Source of the DNA: Raja brachyura
Taxonomy: Eukaryota
DNA: 64,000 bases
Assembly (NCBI GenBank): GCA_963514005.1
Contig: OY740795.1
Coordinates: 33,232,001-33,296,000 of the forward strand
Direction of reading: 5' to 3'
Part shown: one piece after another, positions 29,501 to 38,000 of the stretch
Position numbering within the stretch: the stretch's first letter is position 1
Layout of the letters: every line of letters begins with the position of its first letter
Notes under the pieces: model-generated
Seen by the model: the letters and a program-made list of their open reading frames with translations, nothing else
Databases searched by the model: none
Told to the model about the DNA's origin: nothing
Position numbers and translations under genes: made by a program

Positions 29501-32097
29501 ATGACTGAACTTTGTGTAGGACGTATGTGCCAGACTGGACAAGTAGTTAAAGGAAAGTTAACTGACAAGCTATGATCGATTGGTGTTTCAGGTTGACAAA
29601 TTCCAGCAGAACAAGACATCTGCCACGCATGTGACCTGATAAATAGCAGCAGCAAAGCTCAAATCCAAGTATTCATTTCAATATAAACTAAAAAGCGTTC
29701 GCGTGTGAGTAGAAAAAAAAGTGAGGACCAGAAACGGGGAACCATAAGACAATTTTGTACATTGTCAATAAAGGATCACCTTTTTTTTTGAAAAGATTGT
29801 ATTTTCATGTCTTTCAAAACATACGGAAAATGACTACAGCACCTTTGTGCCCATCATTTTGCCTAGAGCACTTAGTAACATTACTGTAGCTTCAATCAGT
29901 GAAATTACCATATTGAGTGATTAAGCAACAAAATATAATTGAGCCCTCTTAATGGGAACACCCGCACCGAGAACAAAATGTTTCCTTTGCCCAACTATGA
30001 CTAAGAAATCTTGAGTGGCAATCAATTGCATATTGGAAGCATCAGAAACCAAGGCATTAAATGATCTTTAACAGGTTTTGCCTTACAAGAGGAGATTTCG
30101 GAATTATTTCCTTTTATTTGTCAGAAACGCATACACCAAAGTCAAGGTGAAGCCTGATCAGCCGCGATCGAGGTTAAAATGGTGAAACTGCTACCTACGA
30201 CATCCGTCCCTCTCTCCAATGGAGCCATTTCAGATTAGCAAGAATGAGCTAAAAAAACATACCTGAAAACTAATATTCTTGCCATCAAAGTAATCCCAAA
30301 ATTGGGATTAAAATCAGCACTAAAATGCTCCCTCGCAAATATCAATCAAGATGGTTTCATGGGTGCATGTTCGTGGACTGAAAATAATTTATTCCCAGAT
30401 TTCAACATAACTGCAGTGATGGGGTGGTGGTGGGGAAAACAATTGGTGCAAAAACACTAACACTTTGCAGGAAAAATTAAAACCGCAAGGTGGACGTTGG
30501 TTTTGATATAATAAACACAAAATTGACGTGGTTAAAAATTTTAGTTCATGACCCAACTTAGGTAAATTCATACAATCTCAAAAACGCTGTCTTGTCTCTC
30601 CTAGCTTGGACACCAACAAGTTGCAACATATATAATTGATACTCAAACCTATTCACACGGCTGCTTAACATTTACTGTAAAAAGTCCCGCTGTGGACTTC
30701 ACATCAGTGCAATTGTTATTCAAATGTTAGTCAATACCATCAATGCCATTAACGTGAAATACAACCAGAATATAAAAGTGTTTTGTGGCTTAATTACATT
30801 GGGAGTGGGTAGGCGCGGGAAGTACACTGAACATTTATCAGGGAAAATATATATATAAAATTTCAGCCTTAAAATGCTAATTTTATTTGTTCTGGTGGTA
30901 TGTTCAAAACATCTGGCACTCATTTTTGTTCATTGCAGGAAAAAGACAGCCCACAGCAGTGAAATACATACACACACCTCAATGTATTTACATTTGGAAA
31001 ATAAAATTAGGTTTGCTTTTAATCGAAGGAGAACACATTATCAAAACCTATGCCAGTGTTTGGGTATGTTCTAAAATATTATTGAATGGAAGATTTTTGT
31101 TACAACCCCACAGAGCAGTAACGCACACCAAAACCTCCAAAAACCTCAAAAATTAGGTTTTCCTACAAACTCAAAAGAAAGCTTTGGAAATGCTCCAGAC
31201 ATATTCTTATTTTTAATTAAATAATATTAAGCAATGTCTCACAAGGATCGAAATGAACACAAAAACATTTGAAAACAACTTGCTGTCTATGATTCTTCAA
31301 ATACCCATTTACATCTGCGGTGCGCACTGCTTCTAATAATTTATTTAAACTATTCTTTTTTTGTTCAAACCCTCAGTGCAATTTTGAAGAGGATCACAGA
31401 CGCTGTATCAGTCTAAAAGGGAGCAATTACTCCATAGTGTTTTAGCTGCGTTCCGTGACCGGAAAATGTAAAGGACTTAAAAAATGAAAGTATTTTATTT
31501 TTCACGATCCAACTCATGTCTCCAATTTGCAAAGAGTTAATTAAGAAAGCCGTCCTCCTTATCCAAATGACATTTAGATAGTAAAAGGAGTAAGGTCTCT
31601 TTCACATTTGGTTTTATTCATGATTTACATACCGTTGCATCAAAAACAGCTTTGACAATTGAACCACGTTAAGAAGCTCTCTCAAACCATACGAGTATAT
31701 TTCAAATCAATTTTAAAAGTACAATTTAACTAATTGGAAGCATGACAGTGGAATATCAGAATTAGGATTCTAAAATGTAAATTTTTCACTAACATTTGCA
31801 AAACATCTCGAACTAGACAGCTATCAAGAAAAAAGATCAGCATCGAGATGGTTAAAACAACTTTCCTAATGCAAACCCAATGTTATGTTGCCTACAATTG
31901 TTTTTTTCTTCTTTTTTTTGTTCCTTCTTCACAGAAGAAATTCTTATGAAAGCAGTGTTACAAAGGTCATAGTTTCAAGTGTTGGATAGAAGGTCGCTAC
32001 CTAAGCTGACCACCTCTTAACCACAGTGATTGGCCTTATCACAAGCCCATCGGGTGAAATAAAATATAACCGTGCACTGTAGCATACAGAAACTTAC

Positions 32098-32220
32098 CCA
32101 GCTGTTTAGATTGAGGTGCCAGCAACCAAACTGATGGAATAAGGAGAGCCCAGAGGCTAACGTTCCTCCTTTATTGTTCCCTTCTTCCATTCCCAGCAAA
32201 ATTGCATCCCTCGGGTACAT
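32098..32220 (-). CDS. TCF7L2: Candidate alternative first coding exon of a truncated TCF7L2 isoform (41 codons)
   Basis: gcggcATG at 32220 has a purine at -3 and an in-frame TAG upstream at 32253-32251. It is open for 41 codons (MYPRDAILLGMEEGNNKGGTLASGLSLFHQFGCWHLNLNSW) to TGG|gtaagt, a phase-0 donor compatible with the SNKVPV exon. Upstream minus-strand sequence is purine-rich with no polypyrimidine tract. No transcript evidence. Confidence 0.55.
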
Positions 32221-35049: not shown

Positions 35050-35052
35050 CAT
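35050..35052 (-). other. Candidate 3' end of an alternative first exon contributing only the initiator ATG
   Basis: Minus strand reads CAT AAC ATG|gtaagtca, with A at -3 and an in-frame TAA at 35082-35080. Phase 0. The 5' end of the exon is unknown. Confidence 0.45.
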
Positions 35053-38000
35053 GTTATGTTTTTTTTTGTTACAACTTGGTTAAAATTTCAGTCAAACCAG
35101 CTTCATCGGAGGTGTCAAATTTTTTGGCGGACTGTGATCGTATTACTTCCGCAGCCTTGCCTCACAATACTTCAGAACTTTTTACCTAGCTTTGGTTTAC
35201 TTTGAAAGCTGCAGCTCAGCAAACCAGCACAAATTATCTTGCCACCTTCTACAGCTCTGATGCTTTGGCCGCTAACTTTGGAAGGCCCTTTACTACTGCA
35301 TCAAAATTAGCATTGTCAAAGCAGTTAATGAATATTAATACTGTATTTGTCATTGGAGCTGGCCTGATGCTGAACTCCGAGCCATCCATCAGGGACAAGA
35401 TTAAGAACACAATTATTTCTGACTGACAGGGTCCAAATCTGCTAGATTTTTTTTTGCAATCTAAAAAAAAAGAGACAAAAAAAAACATCTTATGGGTTCC
35501 CCCTGGGGACTAACAGTCAGATTAATACACTTTTAATGAAGTGAAGGCTATTAAGTATGAAGAAAAAGCAAACAAGATGTACAAGTCGAACTTACAAATG
35601 CGGCAAGGTGGCTGATAAAAATTAAAAGAATCGCATATCTTTTTCGACAGCTGTCTGAAATCTTTCTTCAGAGCTTTCTGGAATGAAGAAAGAATCTTTC
35701 TTCCCAAATCTGCATCATTTGAATAAGGAATGCACTGTTATAACCCACTTGGGATAATTGTCTCTATCTTACATCTTAACAACATCAACTCAAAGACAGG
35801 ATCCTAAATAATTCCTACACAAATATTATGATCAACACTTCCTTAAAAGCAATGGACAATCATGATTATTCTCTCACTCGCATCTGCATAAACCATATAA
35901 AAAATACTTTGCAAAAAGCACAGAATGGAATCGGTGTACACATTCTTATGGTACACTGTAATATATAGGATGCAAAAAAAAAATTTGAACATATGAAGGA
36001 CTGAAAATGTATTTAGATTCACTGCCCGAATCCTAAGAGCAACTTTGACATTGTCAATTTATGTGGGAATTTGGAAAAAACCATGAAATCAACAAAGGGC
36101 AACTTGGATCAACTTAGTTCTCTTGTACTTAAGAGTGAAAGCACACCAAATTCCCTGTGTTTAAAGATATGCCCTGTCTTTCTTATAAATTTACAAAATG
36201 TACAATAAATATAATTTGATGTCCATGCATATTTACTCTCTCTCACTATCTCCAAGGTTTGGTTCCATGTATTTTAGTTAATTTGTGATCAATTCACACA
36301 TACATTAAAAAATAAGCTGTGAAAAACACCATGCCGCTAATACAGAATTCATGATGAGAAATAAGGGAAAGGTTTGGATGCGGTATTAAAGGAGGAAGCG
36401 TGGACTATAGTCACTTAATTTTCAATCCTAAAATGTTAAAATTTCTCAGCCACCCTTTGAGCATAAACCTGATGCACCAAGAAACGGGCAAGCATTGGGC
36501 CGCCGCTCTTATCCCTGTACACAGGGCTCATTCTCTTTCTCTGCAATTTTAAACCTTTTTAAAGCTATTTCACTTAAAAGATGATTTAAGGCTGGGGAGG
36601 AGCAGGAGGAAAATCTTAAAAATAAAATCCCACAGAAAAGTGACAGATGCAACGGTTAATGCCATCTGACCAGTGAAACGAAGGTGTCTGGGTCAAGCAA
36701 CTATGGTTACTGAACTAATCTACTGCTCTGACTGACCACCCTACTGGCTGCTTCTAATACCATTAGCAATCGTTAGATGAACAATCTAAATTGGAGTTTT
36801 GTCCTCTGATGAGCCAGCCTGACCCCGTTGCAACAGCCCTCCAGCTCCATATGCAGATGGCAAATCTCCTGAAAACACTTCTTTCAGCTTTTTTAAAATT
36901 TTCTTCCCGTGCATATGTCCTTTTCTTTCATACTATTCTCTCTACTCTCCTTTGCTTGAAACTAAAGTCTGCTAACACGAAGACGTGTCCATTTCTCTGG
37001 CCAGTTACTTCTACCGTCAATTTCCACCGCGCGTCCTGAACGATTTGTTGCATTTTACTCGGCTTTGGACAAATTACTTTTTGCACTGCGCGCTCTTCAG
37101 AATGGGAGGGCTGGGAGTGGGGTGGATGGTGGATAGTGCATAAGCGACAGTGGAGAACGTTTGGGAACTCTGCCAGGTTTGAGGCTTTCGAACCAAGTGA
37201 AGTTACAGGCTGCAGACTCTGTAGCAGTGGGTGCAGAAAGCACTTGCCTGACAGAACATTTACGGCAGACAGCTCCCGCTACCTCTACTTACGCAGCACG
37301 ATCACATCAACCCTAGTATCAAATTAACTCAGACTTTGAAAGTTATTGATCTGCTATTAAGACACTAGTGAACTTGATGAAATCAGTGCTGTAGGTGCAG
37401 TGAAGACTTCAAAGTCTCGCACAGACACATAAAACAAGTTGCTTTGATCCTTTTTACGATCCGCAGAGGGTTTAAAGCCCAGTTCTCGATGCGCTGCTTT
37501 TCACACTCGTCAGGTCTGATTTTTTATACCAACAGACAGCTTGATAATGTTAATAGTGCATATTTTAGCAAACAACTAATTCTAAACTAATATCTTAATC
37601 TGTCCAGACAAACGGCATCATTTAAACATGTCAAACAAAACCAATTTCACCTTTATTAGTGCCTCCACCATAGGAATCAGGATTTTTTAATGCGAACAGT
37701 GCATTCTTCTGCTCGTTCTAACATTTGCTATTTTATCATCTAGGTGATAACTAGTTTTCGCTCACATCCTTAAATTCTTACGTTAGGGATTATCCATTAT
37801 TTACAGAACAGTGTCACAAAAGAAATTGTAAATTATTTCATGGATTTATTGAAATACAGAATCTTGAATTATTATTCAAAGCTTTTCTCAAAATACCAGT
37901 AGATTCTAATAAAATAGCCAAAGGACTAAAATAAATAAAAATCTGTAATCATCAATAGCACTGGTAACAGAACAGCAACGTGCAACGGAAAGGATACGAA

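Follow-up and report, generated by a model that had tools for sequence, protein, structure and literature searches.

A probable cartilaginous-fish counterpart of the internal promoter cluster in TCF7L2 intron 5, with a conserved 41-codon alternative first exon

TCF/LEF proteins without the domain for binding beta-catenin bind Wnt response elements and cannot be activated by Wnt. In mouse, VAX2 is said to activate a promoter in intron 5 of Tcf7l2, according to work by Vacik, Stubbs and Lemke from 2011. Here we ask whether TCF7L2 of a cartilaginous fish has such an internal start, as the original prediction proposed for a stretch of 64,000 nucleotides from the skate Raja brachyura (contig OY740795.1, positions 33,232,001 to 33,296,000; hereafter the window). 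The literature describes the mouse promoter (Ex1b-e) as lying upstream of exon 6 and yielding a 35-40 kDa product without 161 residues (PMC3468386, PMC3429047). The dnTcf7l2 system is reported from mouse and Xenopus (PMC4963812), the short mRNA makes up almost 70% of Tcf7l2 in the embryonic thalamus (PMC3825142) and the same internal start is suspected in zebrafish (PMC4194317). We conclude, with a probability of roughly 0.85, that the window holds a cluster of internal promoters in TCF7L2 intron 5 as it exists in a cartilaginous fish, from which a short, beta-catenin-blind TCF7L2 would be made. The cluster is very likely orthologous to that of mouse (Ex1b-e, 'exon 5-prime').

The strongest evidence is a frame of 41 codons on the minus strand, which is the gene's strand, running from an ATG to the donor TGG|GTAAGT (frame 32098..32220, donor 32097-32092). 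A search with exon 6 alone (SNKVPVV...DPKT; 21215..21347, minus strand; 100% identity over 44 amino acids to named TCF7L2 proteins) gave 3826 matches; among the best 120, N-termini were found that consist of a 41-residue peptide homologous to this frame and placed directly before SNKVPVV. Of the 310 proteins collected, 27 combine the homologous peptide with the SNKVPVV junction, and they range from skate to mammals. Identity is 40 of 41 residues in isoform X18 of the little skate Leucoraja erinacea in RefSeq (XP_055502842.1), 78% in Gallus, 68% in the sterlet Acipenser and 49% in the electric eel Electrophorus; mammalian N-termini joined to SNKVPVV are 61-76% identical. Besides little skate, sterlet and electric eel, the junction is carried by a girdled lizard (Hemicordylus), olive python (Liasis), chicken, quails, buzzard, plover, thrush, platypus (Ornithorhynchus), guinea pig, several rodents, ermine, otter and an isoform entry of chimpanzee (Pan). 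The motif without the junction was found in 33 further proteins, named ones among them from eel, carp, notothenioids, a goodeid and plaice. Since 26 of these 33 run on as W-V-S, the TGG|GT.AG donor appears to have been kept there and read through. Length is 41 residues in 39 of the 40 distinct peptides found by pattern; M1, G24, W34, L38 and W41 are invariant across those 39. Purines abound upstream of the ATG at 32220 and no in-frame acceptor was seen there, as would suit a first exon better than a cassette exon. On the strength of the 27 junction proteins and of the conserved start, length and donor, we consider it nearly certain that the 32098 exon is spliced as an alternative first exon, as had been proposed.

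The place of this exon in the gene was determined by mapping a full-length shark TCF7L2 isoform onto the genome. Exon 5 translates exactly to the shark and ray form LIDVQAGSLQGRQGL, from which the bony-vertebrate form differs, and the locus is therefore supported as a chondrichthyan TCF7L2. It ends, at the window-equivalent position 90654, in ATTGTT|GTAAGT after SPAHIV, so that exon 6, which is common to long and short isoforms, begins in phase 0 as predicted for 21347; its acceptor has a pyrimidine tract followed by CAG. Intron 5 measures 69.3 kb, and the candidate first exons lie within it, 11-14 kb upstream of exon 6 and with exon 1 about 122 kb further upstream. The predicted orthology to the mammalian intron-5 system thus agrees both with this position and with the conserved 32098 exon joined to SNKVPVV.

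By parsimony, and judged from the peptide comparisons, the 41-codon exon is traced back to the last common ancestor that living jawed vertebrates share. Because the cluster is orthologous, on our reading, to that of mouse, and because the system includes cartilaginous fish, an internal TCF7L2 start would date at the latest from the jawed-vertebrate crown; the proposed date, the jawed-vertebrate ancestor, is borne out as a minimum age by the conservation of the exon from skate to mammal. No named cyclostome or invertebrate homologue was present among 32 + 23 peptide matches, many of which are unnamed; the absence of a cyclostome homologue is therefore weak and no upper age follows. One of the 23, a repetitive protein of 499 residues, was discarded as spurious.

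How much can be read from the donors themselves? The original prediction had listed three donors with phase-0 ATGs and upstream stops, two of the donors being ATG|GTAAGT, and all of this was confirmed. The minus-strand donors are TGG|GTAAGT after 32098 and ATG|GTAAGT after 34229 and after 35050; the corresponding ATGs are at 32220 (41 codons), 34231 (one codon) and 35052 (one codon), and an in-frame stop precedes each of them upstream, at 32253, 34240 and 35082, respectively. The description of the donors as perfect holds for the intron side (GTAAGT) and not for the full donor score: according to an approximate donor matrix, the two ATG donors are tied at ranks 23-25 among the 4090 GT of the intron and the 32098 donor falls outside the top 25. 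GTAAGT occurs six times in 32.0-35.6 kb, and precisely these three copies combine G at -1 with an open phase-0 ATG; in the whole window such an ATG precedes 6 of the 34 minus-strand GTAAGT. Intron 5 contains seven G|GTAAGT and three ATG|GTAAGT. The 9-mer ATGGTAAGT is seen three times in the 69.3 kb, with 0.38 expected, and two copies at most 830 nt apart have P ~0.002 for intron 5; for a group of three G|GTAAGT in 3 kb, P is 0.04 under a Markov model or 0.15 conditional on the seven seen. All these values are post hoc. The motif pattern by itself is only suggestive, hence the case rests on conservation. The third copy of ATGGTAAGT, at 52281, about which the prediction had cautioned, was confirmed; its ATG|GTAAGT (52279-52281, minus strand) is preceded 191 nt upstream by a pyrimidine tract and CAG (52469) and by a frame full of stops, and is probably due to chance. 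Of all donors in the intron, CAG|GTAAGT at 63480 (minus strand) is the strongest; it lies beside the most CpG-rich 500-nt bin (62901-63400) and has no phase-0 ATG.

The two remaining sites would each form a first exon whose only codon is the start codon. The first candidate ends in the ATG at 34229..34231 (minus strand; donor 34228-34223), in a weak Kozak context with T at -3 and with nine upstream ATGs, and its body may extend up to about 34.8 kb. The second ends in the ATG at 35050..35052 (minus strand; donor 35049-35044) with A at -3. This ATG and its donor are spanned by a highly conserved block (34862..35055, three differences in 194 nt when compared to a relative's unspliced contig), which is also a candidate promoter of the 34229 exon. 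Each of the two sites is located within or next to strongly conserved DNA that is single copy. Proteins that start as M-SNKVPVV exist elsewhere: seven stored ones were found, from mouse, degu, spiny mouse (Acomys), marmot, chicken, king quail and song sparrow. The transcript accessions per protein number two in mouse, two in king quail and four in chicken, as expected if these species use more than one first exon of the Met-only kind; other untranslated differences could also be the cause. With these isoforms, the conserved DNA and the RNA described below, splicing to exon 6 appears probable for the 34229 site and, by a slightly smaller measure, for the 35050 site. The proposed anatomy of three exons and its dating are thus firm for the 32098 exon and probable for the other two.

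Reads of 4 of 14 listed runs were mapped over the range 20600-35100; the body of the 35050 exon extends beyond it. For 31500-36000 no holder of RNA is on record, which weighs neither for nor against the cluster. The most informative run, X13, consists of raw stranded poly(A) reads of one relative, of which about 6% was read. Its strand was set by exon 6, where depth is 0.9 on the gene strand versus 0.08 antisense. Gene-strand depth is 5.26 in 34152-34635 and 2.16 in 34636-35100, with antisense depths of 0 and 0.05, while the bin just below 34152 has 0.01 and most intron bins have 0. The gene-strand RNA thus ends in the bin that contains the 34229 donor. At 34678 eight reads with five starts were counted; an exon ending at 34229 needs a mean depth of about 6.3 over 34229-34635, in line with that depth of 8. 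The region, 34.2-34.8 kb, is single copy in the genome. It is conceivable, if rather unlikely, that this RNA is an enhancer-derived or intronic non-coding transcript, or that one of the other GT donors inside the block is used (34374, 34586, 34711 or 34830), so that no M-SNKV protein is made. The signal is a binned depth that corresponds to an estimated 25-30 reads, and in mouse at least ten alternative 5' exons are used (PMC10208975). Against such a transcript speak the strict confinement of the reads to the gene strand in a poly(A) library and the agreement of the two depths. No pile-up of read starts is listed in the mapped range, and a contig of 89 nt and depth 340 has its end precisely at 21347. 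Such an end would be expected at a point where several upstream sequences join; it does not indicate the partner. Three short interspersed repeat fragments (22372-22479, 24271-24396 and 26490-26550) have very high depth in the RNA of relatives.

Several observations weigh against a functional cluster at this locus, and they touch the 41-codon exon first. The junction-carrying entries are for the most part computational predictions, and in X13 the exon itself is nearly without gene-strand depth (0.2 and 0). An ultraconserved element upstream of the cluster (35246..35389, minus strand; beyond the mapped range) demonstrates that constraint on DNA alone can mimic conservation at the protein level: the gene models of three birds (Turdus, Hirundo and Colinus) start with 48 residues joined to SNKVPVV, of which 43 agree with 35389-35246, and in this genome a TAG stop stands just before the AAG|GTGGCA end of the element. 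Either an enhancer or promoter has been mis-predicted as an exon there, or the element is one more 5' exon, non-coding in this species; it is possibly a fourth 5' exon or the core promoter, and by sequence it ties the upstream edge of the cluster to birds. The 41-codon frame could by analogy be a by-product of conserved regulatory DNA that gene predictors have taken up. Substitutions in the 41-mer are more conservative than under neutral simulation in five of nine comparisons (p<0.03) and not in the other four, with ancestry shared between comparisons, and protein searches are blind to frameshifted or broken copies. However, ATG, length, frame and donor are all retained down to 49-61% identity in teleosts, and the same junction is annotated in many species, the chimpanzee isoform entry included. 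We therefore regard an untranslated by-product as very improbable.

Other observations also speak against the cluster. No junction to 21347 was found among 15 of 16 joints, with 321 loose ends outside the list and reads of short interspersed repeats dominant. The contigs of relatives run unspliced across the 32098 and 35050 donors. A MSNKV start is present in none of 47 chondrichthyan entries and a MYPRD start in one, 45 of the 106 members of three clusters having been listed. The ATG|GT sites cannot be aligned to bony-vertebrate DNA, and a metagenome scan with peptide alignment gave 74 pattern matches and six weak, partial matches (20-22 residues), which were taken as chance. No CpG island is found at the cluster and motif counts are unenriched (TAAT 10 versus 16.9 expected, TAATTA 2 versus 3.5, TATA 2 versus 3.9, TCF sites 5 versus 3.3). 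TAAT sites do occur in the conserved blocks, but the motif signal backs neither VAX2 nor TCF control, and a VAX2-activated promoter would be borrowed from mouse. The lack of a junction in that list and of a MSNKV start among the 47 entries would suit a reading in which only the 41-codon exon is real and the two ATG|GTAAGT are chance or cryptic motifs in conserved enhancer DNA that are never spliced to exon 6; the unsupported copy at 52281 and the poor start context of the 34229 site fit it as well. It is at odds with the spacing of the two copies, with the Met-only isoforms of rodents and birds, for which three species have two or more transcripts each, and with gene-strand RNA that ends in the bin of the 34229 donor. 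On balance we find it doubtful and prefer the cluster of three first exons.

What would such a cluster produce? If transcription began at internal starts within intron 5, the mRNAs would lack exons 1-5, and the 41-codon exon and the two predicted start-codon-only exons would each be spliced in frame to exon 6. As each candidate exon provides an in-frame ATG, the products would be M-SNKVPVV... or the 41-residue peptide followed by SNKVPVV.... This short TCF7L2 would retain the HMG DNA-binding box and lack the beta-catenin-binding N-terminus. In agreement with this, all three exons are in phase 0, and a domain scan of skate isoform X18 matches PF08347 at positions 138-222 only, as compared to 1-222 in the long form, with the HMG box whole. 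The exon map continues with exon 7 (8569..8671, minus strand) and exon 8 (7873..7959, minus strand), and the HMG-box exons are located 0.2-0.9 kb below the first base of the window. In this species transcription would start at the cluster, probably in diencephalon and midbrain as in mouse. By analogy with mouse, the short protein would occupy TCF sites without responding to Wnt activation; where nuclear beta-catenin is present it would compete and repress, and where it is absent it would supply a beta-catenin-independent dose of TCF7L2.

The term built-in Wnt antagonist, used by the original prediction, is contested. Qi et al. (2023, PMC10208975) report that the short form represses TOPFlash and that a 6-kb deletion which removes its first exons abolishes the short protein and impairs vocalisation of pups; reviews citing Vacik 2011 state that the variant of mouse and Xenopus blocks beta-catenin-TCF promoters (PMC4963812). 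A preprint on mouse knockouts finds redundancy rather than antagonism in the embryonic thalamus (bioRxiv 10.64898/2025.12.27.696670): the expression changes in isoform-specific knockouts all point one way, and the total knockout alone alters 172 of 326 genes. In zebrafish, alleles that keep the smaller protein have the null habenular phenotype, so that it has no significant role there (PMC4194317). There is hence a chance just short of even that the cluster is real and its short protein serves mainly as a redundant, beta-catenin-independent source that keeps TCF7L2 dose high in young neurons. This alternative concerns function only and leaves the anatomy unaffected.

The system as such is not new, and the RefSeq annotation of a skate already includes one isoform. 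With dnTcf7l2 (S-TCF7L2) of mouse and Xenopus the cluster shares gene and intron (YLQMKW...SPAHIV to SNKVPVV), several first exons, here candidates, and a product, here predicted, without the first 161-162 residues that keeps the HMG box (PMC3468386, PMC3429047, PMC4963812, PMC3825142); it differs in being chondrichthyan, in that its promoter is a candidate from sequence and in that the match is by cluster and not exon-to-exon with Ex1b-e. The mouse 'exon 5-prime' set is likewise a tight cluster in intron 5: PMC10208975 describes, by nanopore reads, at least ten alternative 5' exons restricted to brain, eight of which, exons 2-9, lie within about 6 kb, and backs them by knockout, whereas here three or four candidates occupy about 3.3 kb and no junction was seen. 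Leucoraja erinacea X18, with its peptide joined to SNKVPVV, is a computational model from another species on which no paper was found. Short LEF1, from an intron-2 promoter, and short TCF7 also lose the beta-catenin-binding domain through an internal promoter (PMC4963812, PMC3825142), but in other paralogues and introns. The available portions of PMC7473649, PMC8651982 and PMC6772062 contain nothing on a first-exon cluster, and no paper on dominant-negative TCF7L2 in catshark or on a shark internal promoter was found in a search outside which most subscription journals fall. A brain isoform system of mouse and Xenopus, suspected in zebrafish, would now extend to cartilaginous fish, and embryos of catshark or skate could be used to ask if its ancestral role is antagonism or dosage. 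TCF7L2 is linked to neurodevelopmental disorder and type 2 diabetes, and constructs of the short isoform that begin at exon 6 would omit the conserved 41-residue N-terminus.

This peptide is the least explored part of the system. It has no match in Pfam or the PDB, its single ESM Atlas match (0.79) is under the Atlas's own threshold, and Groucho eh1-type and LxxLL motifs do not appear to fit. It is not described in the literature covered by the same search; Vacik 2011 may deal with the peptide and its conservation in fish. A speculative and rather unlikely interpretation is that the peptide is no filler and acts as a second, jawed-vertebrate-wide interaction module in place of the beta-catenin-binding domain. 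There would then be three classes of TCF7L2, long, bare M-SNKV and peptide-capped, of which the capped class may recruit a separate cofactor or have its turnover set separately. Candidate residues are the five invariant positions (M1, G24, W34, L38, W41) and the conserved hydrophobic stretch SL-x-QQ-x-G-x-W-x-L-x-L. If true, this could account for the activity that short TCF7L2 has in embryonic thalamus independently of beta-catenin.

In the genome the peptide has one real match, hence no paralogous copy, and neither a peptide nor a conserved-DNA copy was found at the other TCF/LEF loci. When 26-45 kb of the window was compared to 30, 30 and 6 kb beside the matching exon of these three loci, only one repeat was found in common; the repeat piece 26490-26550 occurs in introns of the paralogous loci. 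They are located at G000:C1000:5256-12097, G000:C11:10269740-10444723 and G000:C1:135835640-135968890, one of them on an unplaced contig of 31 kb.

Further conserved non-coding blocks accompany the cluster. Directly upstream of the 41-codon frame, 32235..32415 differs from a relative's contig by seven substitutions and three gaps in 184 nt and is a candidate 5' untranslated region or promoter. The element 33628..33770, single copy and with TAAT sites, has two differences in 143 nt from a relative and is a candidate enhancer or promoter. Rfam gave no match in 21000-35100. At 33546-33553 (minus strand), 75 nt downstream of the element 33628..33770, lies TATAAAGG, directly followed by a TCF site TTCAAAG at 33542; X13 has no reads there, and the pair is a candidate core promoter that may allow self-regulation. 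Moderately conserved intronic blocks, candidate enhancers situated between exon 6 and the cluster, are found in contigs of relatives at 26868-27091, 27814-27995, 28022-28319, 29271-29590 and 29879-30037, all within 26868-30619.

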